From the NCBI GenBank assembly GCA_002478245.1, contig DLMW01000026.1, positions 1 through 26,304 on the forward strand: a stretch of 26,304 bases of DNA, read 5' to 3'. Origin of the DNA: a bacterium UBP18_UBA7526. Its GTDB lineage: Bacteria; UBP18; UBA7526. Position 1 is the stretch's first letter; every line of letters starts with the position of its first letter. Position numbers and translations under genes: made by a program. The notes below the pieces were generated by a model. That model ran no database searches. It saw only the letters and a list, made by a program, of their open reading frames with translations, and was not told where the DNA came from. Of the stretch, positions 1,030 to 23,493 are shown in pieces.

Positions 1030-2049
1030 TTAAATCAGTTCCTTCTCAATCAAAAGTTCGGCGATCTGGATGGTGTTTAGGGCTGCTCCCTTCCTCAGGT
1101 TATCCGAGACCACCCAGAGGTTTAGACCATTTTCTATCGATTCGTCCTCTCGAATTCTACCCACGAAGGTTTCGTCCTTTCCTATAGCATCAATGGGGAT
1201 AGGATACTTCGCTTCTTTCGGATTATCAATAACCTTTACTCCCGGTGCTTGGGATAGTACCTCCTTTGCCTCTTGGGCGGTTAATTTTCTCTCTGTTTCG
1301 ATATTTATGGCCTCGGAGTGGCCGATATAGACCGGAACCCTCACGCAGGTAGCGGTGATCTGGATAGAATCGTCCTCCATAATCTTTCTCGTCTCGTTCA
1401 CCATCTTCATCTCTTCCTTGGTATAACCACTCTCTAGGAAGTCATCTATCTGAGGAATTACATTAAAAGCAATCTGACAAGGCAAAACTTGTTTGACGAT
1501 CTCACTTTCTTGCTTGCTAATTATTTCCTTTGTTTCCCTTTCGAGTTGCTCCATGGCCTCCCTTCCCCAGCCAGAGACAGACTGATAGGTAGAGACAACG
1601 ATCCTTTTAATCCGAGCCACATCGTGCAAGGGCTTTAAGACTACCACCATCTGGATAGTGGAGCAGTTGGGATTGGCGATGATTCCCTTATGCTTCCCTA
1701 AGGCAAGGGGATTTACTTCGGGAACAACCAAGGGAACCTCGGGATCCATCCTCCAGGCACTGGAATTATCCACGACCACTGTCTTTGCTTTGACAGCAAT
1801 GGGAGCGAACTTCTTACTGATCTCTGCCCCGATACTGAAGAGAGCGATATCTACATCCTTAAAGGAGCTAGAGGTCAGTTCTTCTACAATTACGTCTTTG
1901 TCCTTAAATTTCAATCTCTTTCCCGCTGATCTCGCAGATGCTAATAACTTAATCTCTTTAATGGGGAAGTTCCTCTCCTCCAATATCTTAATCATCTCCT
2001 GGCCAACAACGCCTGTTGCTCCCACCACTGCGGTGTGATATGTCTTCAT
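1030..2049 (-). CDS. asd: Aspartate-semialdehyde dehydrogenase
   Basis: VVGATGVVG, DNSSAWRM, IIANPNCST (catalytic C), STYQSVSG, DNLRKGAALN. Confidence 0.97.
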   Translation of the reverse strand: MKTYHTAVVGATGVVGQEMIKILEERNFPIKEIKLLASARSAGKRLKFKDKDVIVEELTSSSFKDVDIALFSIGAEISKKFAPIAVKAKTVVVDNSSAWRMDPEVPLVVPEVNPLALGKHKGIIANPNCSTIQMVVVLKPLHDVARIKRIVVSTYQSVSGWGREAMEQLERETKEIISKQESEIVKQVLPCQIAFNVIPQIDDFLESGYTKEEMKMVNETRKIMEDDSIQITATCVRVPVYIGHSEAINIETERKLTAQEAKEVLSQAPGVKVIDNPKEAKYPIPIDAIGKDETFVGRIREDESIENGLNLWVVSDNLRKGAALNTIQIAELLIEKELI

Positions 2050-2480
2050 TAAAAATCTCCTCTATCTTTTGCTTCAAAGTAATCTTCTAAAATCTCATTA
2101 TGGTCAAAGACTAAATCCTTTGGTATCTTTCCTCTTTTGAATACCCCAATCTCAGAGGCATCAGTAGATGCCTTTGGGGTTCCAGAAGCGGTAGCGACAA
2201 AGACTGTGGTTACGGTATGCCATCTGGGATCCCTATCTAAGGTAGAATAGGTATGAAGCTGTCCCTTTAGTTCCACATCTAAAGAGGTCTCCTCCTTCGC
2301 CTCTCTTAGGGCACAGTCCTCCAAACTCTCTCCATAATCTAAGAAGCCACCAGGGATGGCCCAGCCTACAGGAGGATTCTTCCTTTTGATTAAAACAATT
2401 CCTTTATTCTCTAACTCAATGATAATATCCGCGGTTATCCGCGGTTCTTTCTTGATCCTGGTTTTCTGTTTCCTGCTCAT
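2049..2480 (-). CDS. Nudix hydrolase (ADP-ribose pyrophosphatase-like)
   Basis: Nudix box [24 protein letters not shown]; RDPRWHT; FDH near the C-terminus. Confidence 0.9.
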
Positions 2481-2501
2481 CCCTGCTTCTTGGTTCTAGT
2501 C
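2450..2501. repeat. Degenerate heptamer array spanning the Nudix start
   Basis: tcttgat cctggtt ttctgtt tcctgct (cat) ccctgct tcttggt tctagtc. Confidence 0.55.
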
Positions 2502-2712
2502 TTAGGAGCTAAATGACCCTGTTCTATTGCTTGGATGGACTTGGTCAACTTTTTCCCTAAAACATCATAATTGCTTAAAAGATATCCCCTTCGGGGATAC
2601 TTCCATAAATGACTCGGTTTCAAAGAGGGTATCCAGATGCTCTTTAAGTCTCATCCGCCAACTTATGTGCTATCTGGTAAATTTCTAGGTCCTGGCAACT
2701 TTGATATTTCAT
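2477..2712 (-). pseudogene. Four-helix-bundle protein (23S rRNA IVS protein / Avd-like, TIGR02436-type) remnant with internal deletion and frameshifts
   Basis: Three frames: MKYQSCQDLEIYQIAHKLADET* (from 2712), LKEHLDTLFETES (from 2648), YLLSNYDVLGKKLTKSIQAIEQGHL...* (2584-2477). These match the family N-terminus (DLEIYQxAHxL) and last helices; the middle is missing. Confidence 0.8.
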
Positions 2713-2735
2713 CTTTAATTTTTACAAGCATCCAG

Positions 2736-3794
2736 CTATACGAAACTGGCTACTAGGTCTCCCACTTGGCTTGTGGAGAGCCCCATCTTTCCTGCTCCTA
2801 AGTTCTTTATCTTTCCCGCACCTAAAGCCTTTATCATTGCTTCCTCAACCAATTGAGAACCTTTCTTCTCTCCCAGGGTCTCGAGCATCATCCCCCCGGC
2901 AGCAATGGTGGCTAAGGGACAGATGACGTTCCTTCCCGTATATTTGGGGGCCGAGCCATGGATGGGTTCGAACATAGAAACCCCTTGGGGATTGATATTC
3001 CCACCCGCAGCGATCCCCATCCCTCCCTGGATTATGGCTCCTAGATCAGTGATGATATCCCCGAACATATTACCAGTAACGATGACATCGAACCATTCGG
3101 GATTCTTCACCATCCACATGCAGATGGCATCCACATGGGCATAGTCCCTCTTGATATCCGGGTACTCCTTTTCCCCCATCTCATTAAATGCCCTATCCCA
3201 CAGGCCATAGACATTGGTCAGGACATTCGTCTTCCCACATAGTGTCACCTTCTTATCTTTATTCCTCTTCCGGGCATACTCAAAGGCGTATCTAAGGCAG
3301 CGATCTACTTCCTTCCTGGTATATCTCATCACCTGAGTGGCCACTTCCTCAGGGGTTCCCTTATTCCTTACCTCCCCCTCCCCCCGATAGAGACCAGCGG
3401 TATTCTCCCTTACTACCACAAAGTCGATATCCTCTGGTCCCTTATCCTTAATTGGGGTCTCAACCCCAGGGTAGAGCTTAACCGGCCTCAGGTTTACGTA
3501 CTGATCGAGATCAAATCTCAATTTAAGAAGAAGCCCCTTCTCCAGTATCCCTGGTTCAACATCCGGGTGGCCCACAGAGCCGAGATAGATGGCGTCCATC
3601 TTCCTTATCTCTTCTAAGGCAGAATCGGGCAAGACCTCACCCGTCCTCAGGTATCGTTCTCCACCAAAGTCATAGTCTATGAACTCGAACTCGATCTTCT
3701 CTTTCTGGGCAACCGCTTTAAGGACCTTTAGGCCTTCTCTTATTACCTCTGGTCCTACTCCATCACCAGGGATAACAGCGATCTTATACACCAC
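2736..3794 (-). CDS. leuB: 3-isopropylmalate dehydrogenase
   Basis: IAVIPGDGVGPEV, NLRP, VDA, NMFGDIITD, MFEPIHGSAP; leu operon context. Confidence 0.9.
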   Translation of the reverse strand: MVYKIAVIPGDGVGPEVIREGLKVLKAVAQKEKIEFEFIDYDFGGERYLRTGEVLPDSALEEIRKMDAIYLGSVGHPDVEPGILEKGLLLKLRFDLDQYVNLRPVKLYPGVETPIKDKGPEDIDFVVVRENTAGLYRGEGEVRNKGTPEEVATQVMRYTRKEVDRCLRYAFEYARKRNKDKKVTLCGKTNVLTNVYGLWDRAFNEMGEKEYPDIKRDYAHVDAICMWMVKNPEWFDVIVTGNMFGDIITDLGAIIQGGMGIAAGGNINPQGVSMFEPIHGSAPKYTGRNVICPLATIAAGGMMLETLGEKKGSQLVEEAMIKALGAGKIKNLGAGKMGLSTSQVGDLVASFV

Positions 3795-3812
3795 TGCCTC
3801 GCTCCTTTAAAA

Positions 3813-3941
3813 GTAGTAGGTAACAAGCAAAAAGTAAAAATTGATGAGGATATTTAAAAAATCGAAGTTTACCAGAAATCTAACTCTTTCAATTCCCTAA
3901 CGGGGTCTAGCGATTTCGTTTTTTTACTGATTACTGAATAG
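3813..3941. repeat. Inverted heptamer arrays bounding an 80-bp insert between leuD and leuB
   Basis: Left gtagtag gtaacaa gcaaaaa gtaaaaa (3813-3840); right tttttac tgattac tgaatag (3921-3941). 3833-3840 agtaaaaa and 3921-3928 tttttact are a perfect inverted pair. Confidence 0.6.
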
Positions 3942-4410
3942 AATTCATCAAGCCGCCAGAGGAGATTATTCTCTGAAGGAATTTTGGGAAGGGAGGGACA
4001 CGATAGAGTTTCTTTCTGGTAGTGTTTCTAATCTCCCCTTTACTTAAATCGATCTCCAAAATGTCGTTCTCTTTTGTTTCTCTGACAGCCTCTCTACTCT
4101 CCAGTATGGGTAGACCCATATTGATGCAGTTCCTGAAGAAGATGCGGGCAAAGGAGGAAGCGATGATACAGGAGACACCACAACCCTTTATGGCTAAGGG
4201 AGCGTGCTCCCGGGAACTACCACAGCCGAAGTTCTTTCCGGCAACAATAATGTCCCCGGGCGCTACCCTCCCCGCAAAATTCTTACTCCTTCCTTCCAGA
4301 CAGTGTTTGGCTAACTCTTCAGGATCAGTAGTCACTAGATACTTTGCGGGGATGATCTCATCAGTATTGACATCATCCCCGAACTTATGAACCCTTCCTT
4401 TGAGTCTCAC
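3931..4410 (-). CDS. leuD: 3-isopropylmalate dehydratase small subunit (short type)
   Basis: GDDVNTDEIIPAKYL, GKNFGCGSSREHAP, SFARIFFRNCINMGLP. Confidence 0.95.
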   Translation of the reverse strand: MRLKGRVHKFGDDVNTDEIIPAKYLVTTDPEELAKHCLEGRSKNFAGRVAPGDIIVAGKNFGCGSSREHAPLAIKGCGVSCIIASSFARIFFRNCINMGLPILESREAVRETKENDILEIDLSKGEIRNTTRKKLYRVPPFPKFLQRIISSGGLMNSIQ

Positions 4411-4626
4411 TTAATCGAATCTCTTCTCCTTTAAATGCTTCTCGATCTCATCCCTCATGAGGCTGACAAGCTCCTCATCCGTCTCTTTAATCTTCTTCCA
4501 GATCTTTTGACAGGATGGACAATCACTAGCATCCTCAATGCAGCGGTCATAGCGGACAAGTCCTCTGGACTTTATGGCTATGGCTGCGATCAGGTTGTAG
4601 TTAAGGTTCTTTAACATCCTTCTCAC
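4411..4626 (-). CDS. Small helical protein with CxxC motif, function unknown (start may be ATG 4617)
   Basis: 71 aa, host-like composition, DCPSCQKIW between predicted amphipathic helices; stop abuts the leuD GTG; G-rich SD-like sequence upstream. Confidence 0.75.
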   Translation of the reverse strand: MRRMLKNLNYNLIAAIAIKSRGLVRYDRCIEDASDCPSCQKIWKKIKETDEELVSLMRDEIEKHLKEKRFD

Positions 4627-4639
4627 CCCCTTTGTAATC

Positions 4640-4747
4640 AGTGAACAGTAATAATTGGTTTACGGTGAAAAGCGGTAAACCCCCTTAGAAAACTCAAAGA
4701 GCACGCACCCTTAATTAAAGATATAGGCGAAGTAGGGATAGTAACGC
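4640..4747 (+). repeat. 108-bp dispersed repeat, copy 1
   Basis: Aligns to 8707-8813 with 5 substitutions and one 1-nt indel. Confidence 0.97.
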
Positions 4748-4869
4748 CTAAGAGTAAAACTCTATGAAAAAGGGGTAAACAGTCCCGGATGAGGGACGGG
4801 CAGATTGAATAATAGTGGGGCAAGGAGAACGCACCGCTCAACCGTTAACCTTAAAGTAGCGCAGTTCAC
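4640..4869. other. Inverted-repeat-bounded structured intergenic element, long copy
   Basis: gtgaac (4641-4646) / gttcac (4864-4869) ends; 4657-4676 complementary to 4833-4850; internal hairpins at 4724-4750, 4751-4763 and 4782-4797. Confidence 0.7.
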
Positions 4870-4872
4870 CGA

Positions 4873-6150
4873 CTATTGATTGTGGACTTCATCTGGATGG
4901 GCAATCCTTCCTTTGATGGCGCTGGCAGCAGCTACTGCAGGATTAGAAAGATAGACCTCTGATCTGGGGTGGCCCATCCTGCCCACGAAGTTGCGGTTTG
5001 TGGTGGCCAGAGCCCTCTCTCCCTCTGCCAAGACCCCCATATGGCCACCGAGACAGGGGCCACAGGTAGGGGTGGAGACTACCCCCCCTGCCTCTAAGAA
5101 TATCTCGATCAATCCTTCTTTCACTGCCTGAAGATAGATATTCTGGGTAGCAGGGATAATAATGAGTCTTATATAAGAGGGGATCTTCTTTCCCTTCAAG
5201 ACTTGGGCAGCGATCCTTAAATCCTCCATCCTTCCATTGGTGCAGGAGCCGATGACCACCTGATCTAAAGGGATATCCCCTACCTCACTCACTGGTTGGG
5301 CATTGGAGGGAAGATGAGGGAGGGCAACCTGAGGGGCGATCTTTGAGCAATCGTATTCTCTTATCGCGCAATAGTGGGCATGGGGATCGCTGGTGGGCAG
5401 TGGACAGTGAACAGTGAACAGGGAACAGTGTTTCCTTGCATATTCGAGAGTGATTTTGTCAGGGGCAATGATCCCTGATTTTGCTCCAGCCTCGATGGCC
5501 ATGTTGCACATGGTGAATCTTGAATCCATGGAGAGATGAGAGATTACTTCTCCACTGAACTCCATGGCCTTATATGAGGCGCCATCTACTCCAATATCGC
5601 CAATAGTATAAAGGATGAGGTCTTTTCCGCTTACCCACTTATTTAATTTTCCCCAATAGATGAACTTTATCGTCTCTGGAACCTTGAACCAGAGCCTCCC
5701 AGTAATCATTACCGCTGCTAAGTCTGTCGAGCCCACACCAGTAGAAAAGGCTCCTAAGGCACCATAGGTACAGGTGTGGGAATCGGCACCGATGACCAAG
5801 TCCCCAGGCCTTACCAGGCCCTGCTCAGGCAGAAGAGCGTGCTCTATCCCCATCCTCCCCACATCGAAGTAATACTTGAGATTCTGCTCTTGGGCAAAAT
5901 CCCTTGATATCTTCACCTGTCGGGCTGAAGCAACATCCTTATTAGGGGTGAAGTGGTCAGCAACTAAGACCACTCTCTTATTGTCAAAGACCCTTTTCTT
6001 CCCAGATTTCCTAAACTCCTTTATGGCTAAGGGAGCAGTGATATCATTCCCTAAGGCGATGTCTACCCTGGCCTCGATGAACTCCCCCGGCTCCACTTTT
6101 TTCCTTCCCGCATGAGCCGCCAATATCTTCTCTGTTATGGTAAGACTCAT
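4873..6150 (-). CDS. leuC: 3-isopropylmalate dehydratase large subunit (short type)
   Basis: [49 protein letters not shown]. Confidence 0.95.
5398..5430. repeat. Heptamer tandem array inside leuC
   Basis: cagtgga cagtgaa cagtgaa cagggaa cagtg, translated as [11 protein letters not shown]. Confidence 0.9.
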
Positions 6151-7664
6151 TATCTTCTTCTGTAGATTAAACGATTCAGGGCATTGAGATAGGCCTTGAC
6201 CGAGGCCTCAACGATATCTGTGGAAGCACCATGACCAGTGATGGTCTCTTTTCTGCTCTCTATCTTGACGATGACCTCTCCCAAGGCCTCCTTACCGCCG
6301 GTTACGCCCCTTAGAGCATAGTCCACTAACCTGCACTTTATCTTGGTAATCTTGTCTATGGCTTTATAGCAGGCATCCACCGGTCCATCACCCGTCGCCC
6401 TCTCCTCAAAGAGCTTCCCCTCTCTCTTTATTCTGATGCTTGCCTCTGGAGTAACCTTCGTCCCGCTTCTAACCTCCATATCCTCTAAGGTGAAGGTATC
6501 AGGAATCACATGGATCTCATCCTCAACGATGGCCTCCAGATCTCGATCGGTGACCTCCTTCTTCTTATCTGCCAATTCCTTAAATCTAACAAAGGCCTTA
6601 TTGAGATCCTCTTGAGAGAGCTCGGTATAGCCCAGTTCTTCCAGTCTCTTCCTGAAGGCATGCCTTCCCGAGTGCTTCCCTAAGACTAATTTGGTCTCTT
6701 TTATCCCTACAGATTGGGGAGTCATGATCTCATAGGTAATGGGCTTTGCCAATACCCCATGCTGATGGATCCCTGCCTCATGAGCAAAGGCATTGGCCCC
6801 CACGATGGCCTTGTTGGGTTGAACGGGAATCCCAGTGAGACTACTTACCAATCTTGAAGTCTTATAGATCTCCTTTGTCTTTATCCCGGTTACTTTATTA
6901 AAGATGTCTTTTCTGGTCCTCATGGCCATGACGATCTCCTCTAATGAGGCGTTCCCCGCTCTCTCTCCAATACCGTTTATGGTGCACTCCACCTGGGTAG
7001 CACCGTTCAAGATGGCGGATAGGGAGTTGGCTACTGCTAGGCCTAAGTCATTATGGCAGTGGACGCTAATTACCGCCTGGCCGATATTGGGAACCCCTTC
7101 TCTTATCCCTCTAATTAGCTTCCCGAATTCTACAGGAGTGGCATAGCCTACGGTATCCGGAATATTGACTGTCGTTGCTCCAGCAGCGATTACTGCTTCA
7201 ATTACCTGATGTAAGAATTTGGGCTCGGTCCTTGAGGCATCCTCTGGAGAGAATTCCACATCATCAGTAAGCTTCTTGGCATATTTTACCCCTTCTACAG
7301 CGAGCCTCAAGATCTCCTCCTTTGCCTTCTTCAGCTTATACTTCATGTGGATCTTTGAGGTGGCTAGGAAGACATGGATCCTGGGCTTTTGAGAATACTT
7401 CACCGCATCCCAGGCCCTCTTAATATCCTCCTTCGTTGCCCGTGCCAATCCAGCGATAATAGGACCTTTTACCTGTTGGGCAACGAGCTTTACTGCCTCA
7501 AAATCGCCAGGTGAAGAGATGGGGAAGCCGGCCTCAATGACATCCACCCCTAACTTAGCCAGCTGCCTTGCAATCTCCAACTTCTCCTGGATGTTCAGAC
7601 TCGCCCCTGGGGATTGCTCCCCATCCCTTAAGGTAGTGTCGAATATCAATATTTTCTCAACCAT
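6150..7664 (-). CDS. leuA: 2-isopropylmalate synthase
   Basis: [45 protein letters not shown]; C-terminal regulatory domain with GDGPVDA. Confidence 0.96.
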
Positions 7665-7680
7665 CTTTATTCTCCTTTCG

Positions 7681-7699
7681 AACGCGAATTATTTGCGTT
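7681..7699. repeat. Imperfect palindrome, copy 2 of ACGCGAA-TTA-TTCGCGT
   Basis: aacgcgaa-tta-tttgcgtt overlapping the ilvC stop, just upstream of the leuA SD. Confidence 0.8.
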
Positions 7700-8684
7700 T
7701 TATGAAGGGCATCATGGCCCGCAGTTCCTTTCCCACCTTTTCGATGAGAAGTCCTTTTTCCTTCTCCCTTAATTCATTGAACTTAGGATAACCTGCCTTA
7801 CACTCTGCCATCCATTCCCGGGCAAAGGAGCCATCCTTTACCTCAGATAGTATCTTCTTCATCTCATCCCGAACCGTCTGACTTATAACCCTTTTGCCTC
7901 TGGTCAGGTCGCCATACTCTGCGGTATCTGAGACCGAGTACCTCATCCAGGTCAAGCCCCCCTCATAGATGAGATCAGTGATGAGCTTAAGTTCATGAAG
8001 GCACTCAAAGTAGGCGACCTCTGGCTGGTATCCGGCCTCTACTAGGGTAGCAAAAGCGGCCTTGATGAGTTCGCTCACTCCGCCACAGAGGATGACCTGT
8101 TCCCCGAAGAGGTCGGTCTCCGTCTCTTCAGCGAAGGTGGTCTCCAGAACTCCTGCCCGGGTGCAACCGATCCCTTTAGCATAGGCCAAGGCGATCTCCT
8201 TTGCCCTTCCCGTATAATCCTGCTCGATAGCCACCAAGGCCGGGGTCCCCTCTCCTAGAGTGAACATCCTCCTTACCAAGTGCCCAGGTCCTTTGGGAGC
8301 AACCATGAAGACATCGATATTCTTAGGAGGAAGGATCTCTTTGAACCGGATGTTGAAGCCATGGCTAAAGGCCAGGGCATCCCCTTCCTCCAGGTTGGGC
8401 TCAATATCCTTCTTATAGACCTCTCCCTGGATGGTATCGGGTATCAGGATCTGGATGATGTCTGCTTCCTTTGAGGCTTGCGCACAAGAAACTGGTTTAA
8501 AACCATGCTCTACTGCTAGTTGATAGTTATCCGTTCCTTCTACTTCACTCACAATAATATCCAATCCCGAATCCCTCAGGTTCTGGGCCTGAGCATGGCC
8601 CTGAGAACCATAGCCAATAATGGCAATCCTTCTCCCCTTCAATACCTCTAAATTGGCATCCTTCTCATAATAAACTTTTGCCAT
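7689..8684 (-). CDS. ilvC: Ketol-acid reductoisomerase
   Basis: [41 protein letters not shown]. Confidence 0.97.
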
Positions 8685-8706
8685 CTTTGCGCCTCCCTTT
8701 GGTCGG

Positions 8707-8821
8707 AGTGAACAGTAATAATTGGTTTATGGTGAAAAACGGTAAATCCCCTTAGAAAACTCAAAGAGGAGCACCCTTAATTAAAGATATATGCGAAGTA
8801 GGGATAGTAACGCTGTTCACT
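8707..8821 (+). repeat. 108-bp dispersed repeat, copy 2, closed by a 9-bp inverted repeat
   Basis: 8707-8813 matches 4640-4747; agtgaacag (8707-8715) / ctgttcact (8813-8821), followed by a second unit ctgtcta. Confidence 0.97.
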
Positions 8822-8833
8822 GTCTACCGTGTT

Positions 8834-9316
8834 TCACTTGCTACCCCTGGGTAGGGCGATCCTTCCGGTGCGGCTTAAGGTCTTTAGGCCCAGGGGTCGC
8901 AAAAGGTCTAAGATCGTCTTTATCCTATCCTCTTCTCCTACGATCTCGATGGTTATCGTCTTCTCACCCACATCTGCAATCCTGGCCTCAGGAAAGCTAT
9001 TGACAATCTGTAGGATCTGGGGTTTTGTTCCCTTTGTTAAAGAGACTTTGACTAATAATAGTTCTCTGGTAATGGGCTTCTCACCCACGAAGTCAGCGAC
9101 CTTGATGACGTCGATTAACTTATGGAGCTGTTTCGTTACCTGCTCCAGGATCCTATCATCTCCTTCAACCACTAAGGTCATCCTTGAGGTATCGGGGTTC
9201 TCTGTCTCACCCACTGCCAAACTCTCGATATTGAATCCCCGCGCACTGAATAGCCCAGAGATCCTTGCTAAGACCCCTGGCTTATTCTCTACCAGAACAT
9301 TAATGATATGCTTCAT
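8834..9316 (-). CDS. ilvN: Acetolactate synthase small regulatory subunit
   Basis: VENKPGVLARISGLFSARGFNIESLAVG ACT domain; KQLHKLIDVIKV; RTG. Confidence 0.96.
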   Translation of the reverse strand: MKHIINVLVENKPGVLARISGLFSARGFNIESLAVGETENPDTSRMTLVVEGDDRILEQVTKQLHKLIDVIKVADFVGEKPITRELLLVKVSLTKGTKPQILQIVNSFPEARIADVGEKTITIEIVGEEDRIKTILDLLRPLGLKTLSRTGRIALPRGSK

Positions 9317-9330
9317 TTCTCCCCTCCGGG

Positions 9331-9347
9331 ACGCGAATTATTCGCGT
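9331..9347. repeat. Perfect palindrome ACGCGAA-TTA-TTCGCGT
   Basis: Immediately after the ilvB stop and upstream of the ilvN SD. Confidence 0.85.
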
Positions 9348-13226: not shown

Positions 13227-13910
13227 TCACTTCCCCACTGGCGCTCGAACATAAATAGGTCTTAAGGAAAGTAGCTCTGTCTTTCTACTTCTCTTTAGTT
13301 TCTTCAACCCCAACTCTGCGATGGATGAAGCATCCGGCAATCTCCGTGCCTTAGGAGCAAGGATTGCCCTCTTCCCTAATCTCTTCTTTATCAAATCCCC
13401 ATAGACCTCTATCCCATCCCCCAAAAAAACGATCCTTAACCCTTGACCCTTGACCCTTAACCCTATCTTCTTTAATAACTCACCTGGTTCACAAGCCATA
13501 TACCTGGTAAGTCTCTTTCCATTCTTATACAAAGCAGTATAGACCTCTCCCTTTCGCGCATCCAGAATGGGACAGACTAAATCCTGACAATTAAAGAGCT
13601 TGAAGGCCAGACCGTCCAAGGTTGGTATCCCAACAATTGGGATATTCAATCCCTGGGCCAATCCCTTGGCCGTAGCGATCCCAATGCGTAACCCAGTGAA
13701 GGAGCCTGGTCCCAGGGAGACGGCGATTCCATCCAGATCTTTAATGGTCAAAGAGGCATCCTTTAGTATCCTATCTATAGCAGGCATTAGCCTTGAGGTA
13801 TGGGTCTCTCTCAAGTTTAGAGTATATTCTGCGATCAACCCTTTCTCATTCATCAGAGCCACAGAGCCGGTCATAGTAGAGGTTTCAATCCCTAAGATTA
13901 GCATAGTCAA
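13227..13910 (-). CDS. tsaB: t6A biosynthesis protein TsaB (start may be ATG 13904)
   Basis: LGIETST, VSLGPGSFTGLRIG, DARKGEVY, PIYVR. Confidence 0.95.
   Translation of the reverse strand: MTMLILGIETSTMTGSVALMNEKGLIAEYTLNLRETHTSRLMPAIDRILKDASLTIKDLDGIAVSLGPGSFTGLRIGIATAKGLAQGLNIPIVGIPTLDGLAFKLFNCQDLVCPILDARKGEVYTALYKNGKRLTRYMACEPGELLKKIGLRVKGQGLRIVFLGDGIEVYGDLIKKRLGKRAILAPKARRLPDASSIAELGLKKLKRSRKTELLSLRPIYVRAPVGK
13434..13464. repeat. Heptamer tandem array inside tsaB
   Basis: ccttaac ccttgac ccttgac ccttaac cct, translated within IGLRVKGQGLRI. Confidence 0.88.
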
Positions 13911-20893: not shown

Positions 20894-20919
20894 TCCCTTA
20901 GATCTCCTTTTAAGCCCTT

Positions 20920-20944
20920 GGCTGATCCGCCTCTGGCGGAAACC
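20920..20944 (+). repeat. 25-bp REP-like palindromic element, copy A
   Basis: ggctga-tccgcc-tct-ggcgga-aacc; its reverse complement matches 23455-23479 at 24/25. Confidence 0.9.
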
Positions 20945-20957
20945 AATATTAACCTAT

Positions 20958-23420: not shown

Positions 23421-23454
23421 CCTTCTCTCACTATATCCGAGGAAATTGGTTTGC

Positions 23455-23479
23455 GGTTTCCGCCCGAGGCGGATCAGCC
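23455..23479 (-). repeat. 25-bp REP-like palindromic element, copy B (opposite orientation)
   Basis: ggtt-tccgcc-cga-ggcgga-tcagcc. Confidence 0.9.
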
Positions 23480-23493
23480 TTAAATAACACTAC

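Follow-up and report, generated by a model that had tools for sequence, protein, structure and literature searches.

Inserts between ilv and leu genes of a UBP18 bacterium, read as probable relics and miniatures of mobile hairpin cassettes akin to the intervening sequences of 23S rRNA

The ilv/leu operon of the bacterium UBP18_UBA7526 lies on contig DLMW01000026.1 (C81 of genome G000), whose full 26,304 nucleotides (nt) were analyzed and are called the window below. G000 is a metagenome bin of 1.16 Mb that is 82.6% complete, has 45.7% G+C and consists of 90 contigs with 248 N gaps. The genes of the ilv/leu region all lie on the minus strand, and four of the junctions between them (J1 to J4) carry inserts, every one of them present where a first-pass annotation of the sequence had placed it. 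Here we compare these inserts with the same junctions in sister genomes and argue that they are probably the relics and gene-less miniatures of hairpin cassettes that are mobile at the level of DNA, cassettes that we read as relatives of the intervening sequences (IVSs) of 23S rRNA. An Rfam search of the whole window (E ≤ 1) gave zero matches. In the direction of the operon, its genes and spacers are:

upstream operon genes, minus strand: ilvD and ilvB
8834-9316, minus strand: ilvN
8685-8833: non-coding spacer J4
7689-8684, minus strand: ilvC
6150-7664, minus strand: leuA
4873-6150, minus strand: leuC
4627-4872: non-coding spacer J3
4411-4626, minus strand: orfX, 71 residues, without family
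3931-4410, minus strand: leuD
3795-3930: non-coding spacer J2
2736-3794, minus strand: leuB
2481-2735: non-coding spacer J1
2049-2480, minus strand: Nudix
downstream operon genes, minus strand: asd and truA
two further short spacers, leuA/ilvC (24 nt) and ilvN/ilvB (31 nt)

The comparison set consists of six genomes, G000 and five sister genomes (G001 to G005), among which G001 represents a different genus of the same family; the orthologous operon was retrieved from G002, G004 and G005 for the comparison of junctions. The four orthologous operons differ at nearly every junction, which may be filled, empty or differently filled. Thus, the leuB/Nudix junction (J1) measures 255 nt in G000, holds an intact four-helix-bundle (4HB) gene in G001, comes to about 35 nt in G002, where an array remnant is left, and measures 0 nt in G004 and G005, and leuD/leuB (J2) measures 136 nt in G000, about 4 in G002, 135 in G004 and 105 in G005, with different repeat units in each. 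The ilvN/ilvC junction (J4) measures 149 nt in G000; in G002 it measures 481 nt and holds a GxxExxY/PDDEXK_3 gene between CACGGAT arms, a GxxExxY gene is also found there in G003, and in G004 it consists of 184 nt of nested hairpins. Two junctions that measure 0 nt in G000 are filled in relatives, leuA/leuC by 235 nt in G002 and about 1.9 kb in G004, and orfX/leuD by a hairpin of 110-147 nt in G002 and G004 that is flanked by two diverged copies of the last 27 or more nt of orfX, of which G000 has one. Filled and empty alleles of one junction therefore exist side by side in the family, and the invariance that would have spoken against insertion is clearly absent. The small gene orfX is itself kept in G000, G002 and G004 and absent from G005, and in G002 and G004 only it is preceded by orfY (91 residues), with hairpins on both sides of the pair (L013 7544-8031). 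Profile searches gave no convincing protein family for orfX or orfY; the pair may itself be cargo inserted between leuC and leuD.

The history of J1 can be followed most closely, and its features are:

2480-2712, minus strand: decayed 4HB gene of the 23S-IVS-protein family, in three frame pieces (2647-2712, 2580-2645 and 2480-2575)
2725-2735: remnant of an upstream CTGGATG array, about 1.3 units, compared with about 4 units at this position in G001
2470-2499: decayed downstream arm, which aligns to the CCAGGAT/CAAGGAT array of G001 and now codes for the end of the relic and the first Nudix codons
2579-2607, plus strand: 29-nt hairpin repeat with a UUCG loop, which in the alignment with G001 replaces about 32 nt of the 4HB relic

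At the same junction, G001 has in order about 4 CTGGATG units, a ribosome-binding site (RBS), an intact 4HB open reading frame (ORF) and a complementary CCAGGAT/CAAGGAT array that continues in frame into Nudix. The G001 ORF matches PF05635 at 4.6e-22 (78.7 bits against a cut-off of 33.8) as well as TIGR02436, and the DNA of J1 can be aligned to the G001 cassette throughout, with a 173-bp internal deletion in J1 and a TGA stop codon of the relic that overlaps the Nudix ATG. When mended, the 78-residue relic has zero Pfam matches at E ≤ 1 and falls below the PF05635 cut-off, being too short for the Pfam model; by BLASTP it matches the G001 ORF at 1e-22 with 66% identity, and since that ORF is a PF05635 protein, the cargo of J1 is a pseudogene of a member of this family. 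The four-helix-bundle pseudogene that the first-pass annotation had recognized is thus real, shown by orthology to G001 and not by a hidden Markov model, and J1 is, as judged from this alignment, the decayed ortholog of an intact 4HB cassette at the same junction. The 29-nt hairpin within it recurs in about 19 near-identical copies in G000 (on contigs C51, C63, C29, C72, C64, C9, C83, C69 and others), many of which adjoin assembly gaps; it forms the end module of an intergenic element present in many copies, the first in a chain of small hairpin modules, and because many copies run directly into N gaps a longer repeat is probably unassembled there.

Cargo-bearing copies outside the window, which the first-pass annotation had called for, exist intact in the relatives, each of which has 2-10 PF05635 matches and 1-6 PDDEXK_3 matches. 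Almost all intact 4HB and GxxExxY genes in these genomes have 3-5 tandem units upstream and the reverse complement of these units downstream, so that a full cassette of about 450 nt consists of a left arm with 3-5 repeat units, each about 7 nt long, an RBS, one small gene and a reverse-complement right arm. The gene encodes either a 4HB protein (PF05635/TIGR02436) or a GxxExxY protein of the PD-(D/E)XK type (PF13366/TIGR04256), and these two cargo families are the only recurrent proteins of the system. The unit sequence is specific to each cassette: in 11 of 22 cassettes the upstream arm finds its best match in its own downstream arm, where the expectation is 1 in 22 for each (binomial probability about 1e-9). 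The arms also follow the cargo, as the word CRCNRAW, a motif defined post hoc, occurs 4.9 times per PDDEXK_3 cassette and 0.43 times per 4HB cassette; this word class recurs in hairpins without a gene within the ilv/leu operons of both G002 and G004. Cassettes are often nested within older hairpins. By comparison, the four PF05635 matches that G000 has besides J1 are all broken or partial, with no full-length uninterrupted frame, and the genome retains intact GxxExxY/PDDEXK_3 genes on C24 and on C88, the latter within a 301-residue open frame. Stop-free arrays also join a cargo gene in frame to the next gene (L072, L029 and L079), and the resulting fusions include a 275-residue 4HB-Nudix frame (G001 C138 2101-2928), a 255-residue 4HB-pilin-like frame in G004 and the 301-residue frame around GxxExxY in G000.

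That such cassettes move from site to site is seen from near-identical copies of arms and gene at unrelated places and from unrelated cassettes in one and the same spacer. Two cassettes of G004 (L044 and L066) and one of G005 (L026) share 90-93% DNA identity over about 450 nt of arms and gene, a stretch that spans about -61/-84 to +90/+95 around the gene, in flanks that are unrelated; the proteins of L026 and L044 are 98% identical. Across genera, L045 of G003 and L071 of G004 are 95.7% identical over 468 nt. Conversely, one spacer whose flanks are 84-91% identical among three genomes holds three different cassettes (L016, L025 and L043), whose 4HB proteins are 35-38% identical to one another or do not match at all, against a family median of 31%. 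The mobility that had been suspected from the window alone is thus borne out in its relatives. Vertical inheritance with decay is found as well, in G000 C34 compared with G004, C72 compared with G005 and J1 compared with G001. The cassette gene is co-oriented with its neighbor in every decidable case, upstream (33 of 33) and downstream (36 of 36), and the cassettes therefore ride on operon transcription.

In G000 the cassettes are mostly fossils, represented in the window by four decayed or miniature inserts and two minimal palindromes, both of which the first-pass annotation had missed. Apart from J1, these are:

3795-3930: J2, the leuD/leuB insert, with A/T-rich inverted arms of CAGTAAT/CAGTAAA type at 3812-3841 and 3918-3937
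4627-4872: J3, a full composite copy of elements A (4640-4747) and B (4774-4849), with a closing stem of 4628-4636 and 4864-4872
8685-8833: J4, a half copy, element A at 8707-8813, with closing arms within 8701-8716 and 8813-8829
7682-7698: 17-nt palindrome in the leuA/ilvC spacer, each arm being a single unit of CGCGAAT type
9331-9347: the other copy of this palindrome, in the ilvN/ilvB spacer

J3 and J4 have closing inverted stems, which J1 and J2 lack. The stems of J3 and J4 are 9-12 bp long and contain 1-2 GTGAACA-type heptamer units each, and in J3 the stem encloses nested stems. Compared with shuffled sequences, J3 folds better on the sense strand (z = -3.3) than on the plus strand (-1.3), and J4 better on the plus strand (-2.25) than on the sense strand (-0.5). 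The arms of J2, one of which contains the leuD stop codon, are built from AGTRAWN-class words that match hairpins of contig C77 of G000, and the same class is found in the AGTAACC/AGTTTAC hairpins that abound in G000; these are clear examples of arrays with an inverted partner, and they enclose variable, often nested contents. The first-pass annotation had assigned J2, J3 and J4 to different unit families; instead, all three share the AGTRAWN class. Its description of the inserts as closed by inverted heptamer arrays is right in kind and overstated in degree, because the arms in the window are stubs of merely 1-2 units. The 17-nt palindrome has only two copies in G000, both in the window, where 0 are expected by chance.

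The two copies of a structured element proposed for J3 and J4 were confirmed, as element A is 94% identical between them over 108 nt. Elements A and B, half each, make up a single composite element of about 250 nt that has many partial copies in G000, with 18 matches to A or B in G000 and 9-16 in each of G001, G002 and G004; with their many copies, lack of coding sequence and closing inverted stems, they resemble miniature inverted-repeat transposable elements. Element B is a module of about 85 nt, 70-76% identical in G001, G002 and G004 (three genera, with 9-16 matches per genome), that lies in relatives between GGTTTAC-type arrays and the RBS of the next gene, usually 10-30 nt upstream of RBS and start codon (L046-L065). 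It folds into a covarying TGAATAA/TTATTCA hairpin, an AGCGG/CCGCT stem and one hypervariable hairpin; in the window, B is missing half of its conserved hairpin, and the copies of A and B alike are truncated and run antisense to the operon. Contigs assembled from the sole DNA run, a hydrocarbon metagenome, break at the copies of element A, and no alternative alleles were seen in them. The case for J2 as a member of the element A family is weak, the 28-nt motif match to the core of A (z about 4) lying inside the range of the best shuffles. A separate small element, TCCGCC-NNN-GGCGGA followed by TCAGCC, is found in the window at 20917-20946 and 23447-23480 and has at least 9 copies in G000; its full 30-nt double-hairpin form is inserted into the leuC array of both G002 and G004 without breaking the reading frame, and elsewhere it occurs in hairpin loops.

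Taken together, these results suggest that the junction inserts probably derive from cassettes that lie, sense-oriented in every case, in spacers separating co-directional genes and are copied as whole units, arms and gene together, into new spacers. The cassettes displace one another at the same spacer, nest in older hairpins and then decay. Their cargo proteins may bind the words of their own arms and take part in movement or maintenance, the long stems, once transcribed within the operon, would be cut by RNase III as in 23S IVSs, and the units within an array and between arms may be kept alike by slippage and template switching.

Several observations weigh against this account. All six genomes are incomplete metagenome bins (53-93% complete), and of the 99 heptamer arrays of G000, with its 248 N gaps, 20 lie within 300 nt of a gap. 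No regular short target-site duplication is found at the ends of the three near-identical cassette copies, and the sole flanking duplication, at orfX/leuD, is unusually long at 27 nt or more. In G000 itself, J1 has no closing stem and folds no better than shuffled sequences (z = -0.6), and the same is true of the fold of J2 (z = +0.4 to +0.5). No recognized transposase was found; searches of the six genomes gave no match to an RVT_1 reverse transcriptase, as expected of a diversity-generating retroelement, or to a Y1 transposase (PF01797), as expected of a REPIN/RAYT system. No enzyme activity is, to our knowledge, known for 4HB proteins. Exact inverted 11-mers within 700 nt of one another are not enriched in G000 (520 pairs compared with 490 mirror pairs). 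At the level of arrays, a partner test with strict thresholds paired 14 of the 99 with an inverted array no more than 800 nt away, the random-place control giving 3.3 (maximum 9) and the mirror control 5. Finally, the concerted change of units described below means that some cases of different units at one site may reflect evolution in place and not insertion.

This last point leads to the first rival explanation, in which slippage of the polymerase and template switching create and renew the arrays, inverted partners included, where they stand, with the small genes as mere passengers and without dedicated mobility. Exact period-7 runs are strongly enriched in G000 (61, against 5-9 for each of the periods 6 and 8-12), an excess like that of short tandemly repeated repetitive sequences (STRRs). 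Such arrays are not confined to spacers, as 43 of the 99 fall within long open frames, and one of these lies in the operon itself:

5398-5430, minus strand: leuC array of about 4.7 CTGTTCA units, in frame and translated as HCSLFTVHC

In G002 and G004 the leuC array contains an in-frame 30-nt double-hairpin element, and the corresponding site of G005 is occupied by a CGCATTC array. The enolase gene carries four unit variants at one site in four genomes, 1-3 bases apart from one another and uniform within each array. In AhcY, (ACCGTTC)x4 replaces 39 nt of native coding sequence at unchanged length in G000, G001, G002 and G003, and G004 and G005 retain the canonical sequence (L168 on G000 C10, compared with L176-L180). 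In-gene arrays at orthologous sites thus change their units in concert between genomes, to judge from these alignments, as local repeat dynamics would have it, and slippage has been published as the cause of heptamer excess (PMC4692102). As a sufficient explanation this is nevertheless unlikely, since it accounts neither for arms and gene that are 90-96% identical at unrelated sites and 98% identical proteins in different spacers, nor for unrelated cassettes in one spacer and the strict sense orientation. Further in-gene arrays of G000 lie in LpxK, an aminoacyl-tRNA synthetase and IspG as well as in enolase and AhcY, the enolase of G001 has an extra 50-nt palindrome in frame, and the window carries an in-frame GGGTYAA array of about 4 units at 13434-13464, in a 227-residue ORF where it encodes LRVKGQGL.

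The second rival, which the first-pass annotation had favored, is an element acting at the level of RNA, in which the stem would direct removal of the cargo from the mRNA, and possibly its insertion by way of an RNA intermediate, with enzymes supplied in trans. The sense orientation of all cassettes within operons would fit such an element, as would the presence of an RNase III gene in G000, given that RNase III excises 23S IVSs that carry the same gene family (PMC4990558); RNase III cutting is not religation, however. The arms, moreover, show no sense-RNA signature. Over 37 cassettes, the arm positions comprise 1199 Watson-Crick pairs, 61 G·U-type and 71 A·C-type mismatches and 233 others; there is no G·U excess (p = 0.43), and RNA-level selection was accordingly rejected as the main constraint on the arms. 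The mismatches are strand-symmetric, so that the complementarity looks like a property of DNA or a product of the process that makes the arms and not like RNA-stem selection. Together with the opposite strands on which J3 and J4 fold best and the lack of RVT_1 matches in the six genomes, this leaves RNA-stem-guided insertion and excision unsupported and, in our judgment, decidedly improbable. Action in trans is plausible only in that intact GxxExxY/PDDEXK_3 genes stand elsewhere in G000, where no full-length 4HB frame is found. That the inserts are hairpins selected by the host as processing, stabilizing or translational-coupling sites for ilv/leu expression is very improbable: they do lie exactly between a stop codon and the next RBS, which is preserved or supplied by the insert, and element B does place covarying hairpins just upstream of RBS and ATG at many loci of relatives, but junction content differs among close relatives with some junctions empty, the A and B copies of the window are truncated and antisense, and the same elements adjoin unrelated genes.

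Beyond the derivation of the junction inserts from DNA-level cassettes, we tentatively advance a wider proposal, which we consider possible rather than probable. According to this proposal, the 4HB and GxxExxY proteins would be factors encoded by the elements themselves, which would form an undescribed kind of mobile DNA with inverted arrays of protein-binding words of about 7 nt at its ends and with sense-oriented insertion into operon spacers and hairpin tips; the classical 23S IVSs and much of the bacterial heptamer excess, including in-frame arrays of housekeeping genes, would be its products. The function of PF05635 and GxxExxY proteins, the origin of 23S IVSs and the excess of 7-nt repeats in bacteria are three so far unexplained things. 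The six genomes constitute a natural experiment that links all three: a single operon shows, from genome to genome, cassettes that are intact, replaced, empty or fossil, and this, with the near-identical cassettes at different sites, the strict sense orientation and no known transposase or reverse transcriptase found, makes binding and mobility tests of two small proteins concrete and cheap. In-frame arrays in essential enzymes (LeuC, enolase, AhcY) also bear on annotation and on the tolerance of proteins for repeat-derived loops.

A search of the literature found no description of free-standing 4HB or GxxExxY cassettes, and the closest known system is the ORF-bearing 23S IVS. In Coxiella burnetii, tandem GACAGAT heptamers that vary between strains precede the S23p ORF of the IVS and RNase III cuts at the first repeat, ORF-bearing 23S IVSs are also known from Leptospira, Brucella and Xanthomonas, and the old idea that the IVS ORF served mobility is discussed by the same authors (PMC4990558). 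Both systems have a PF05635 protein in the loop of an inverted-repeat stem, tandem heptamers directly upstream of the ORF (with a copy number that in IVSs varies between strains), an ORF prone to decay and transcription within a host transcript. Unlike the IVSs, the cassettes described here lie between protein genes of operons and not in helix 25 or 45 of 23S rRNA, they include a second cargo family, GxxExxY, with the same design, and they show movement from site to site. A 23S-borne cassette was not seen in the sole assembled 23S gene of the family, that of G001, which at 3017 nt against a 2925-position model exceeds the model by about 90 nt and is therefore too short to hold a cassette of 450 nt. 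The rRNA spacer of G001 (C126, L181) has a gene-less heptamer hairpin in which AAACTCC/AAATCCC faces GAGTTTT/GAATTTT, directly after the spacer tRNA and upstream of the 23S gene.

Comparable intergenic heptamer repeats are the STRRs of cyanobacteria. In Xanthomonas, GGGAATC forms 70-75 convergent (inverted) pairs, Nostoc has GGGGATT, and such heptamer repeats have been called uncharacterised (Rehm et al. 2015, PMC4692102). Like the arrays described here, they consist of tandem 7-nt units that are mostly intergenic, often between co-directional genes, and vary in length and sequence among close relatives; they differ in that one unit per genome is reported, with no link to cargo or mobility (PMC4692102). 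The present genomes have dozens of units each, every one with its complement around a gene or nested element. Very small mobile repeats that insert into genes are known as the Rickettsia palindromic elements, and the small dispersed repeats of Nostoc are reportedly very small mobile repeats inserted in heptamer arrays and genes. The 30-nt double-hairpin that G002 and G004 carry within their leuC array is like both, in another lineage and with other sequences, and a relation to gene-bearing cassettes is not described there. Repetitive extragenic palindromes (REPs) and their paired form, REPINs, which are mobilized by RAYT (Y1) transposases (PMC3116915), likewise consist of short palindromic intergenic inverted pairs, include copies that are non-autonomous and have a single protein family as their proposed agent; unlike these, the arms described here are tandem arrays that differ between copies and not one conserved REP sequence, and the candidate protein is carried within the element.

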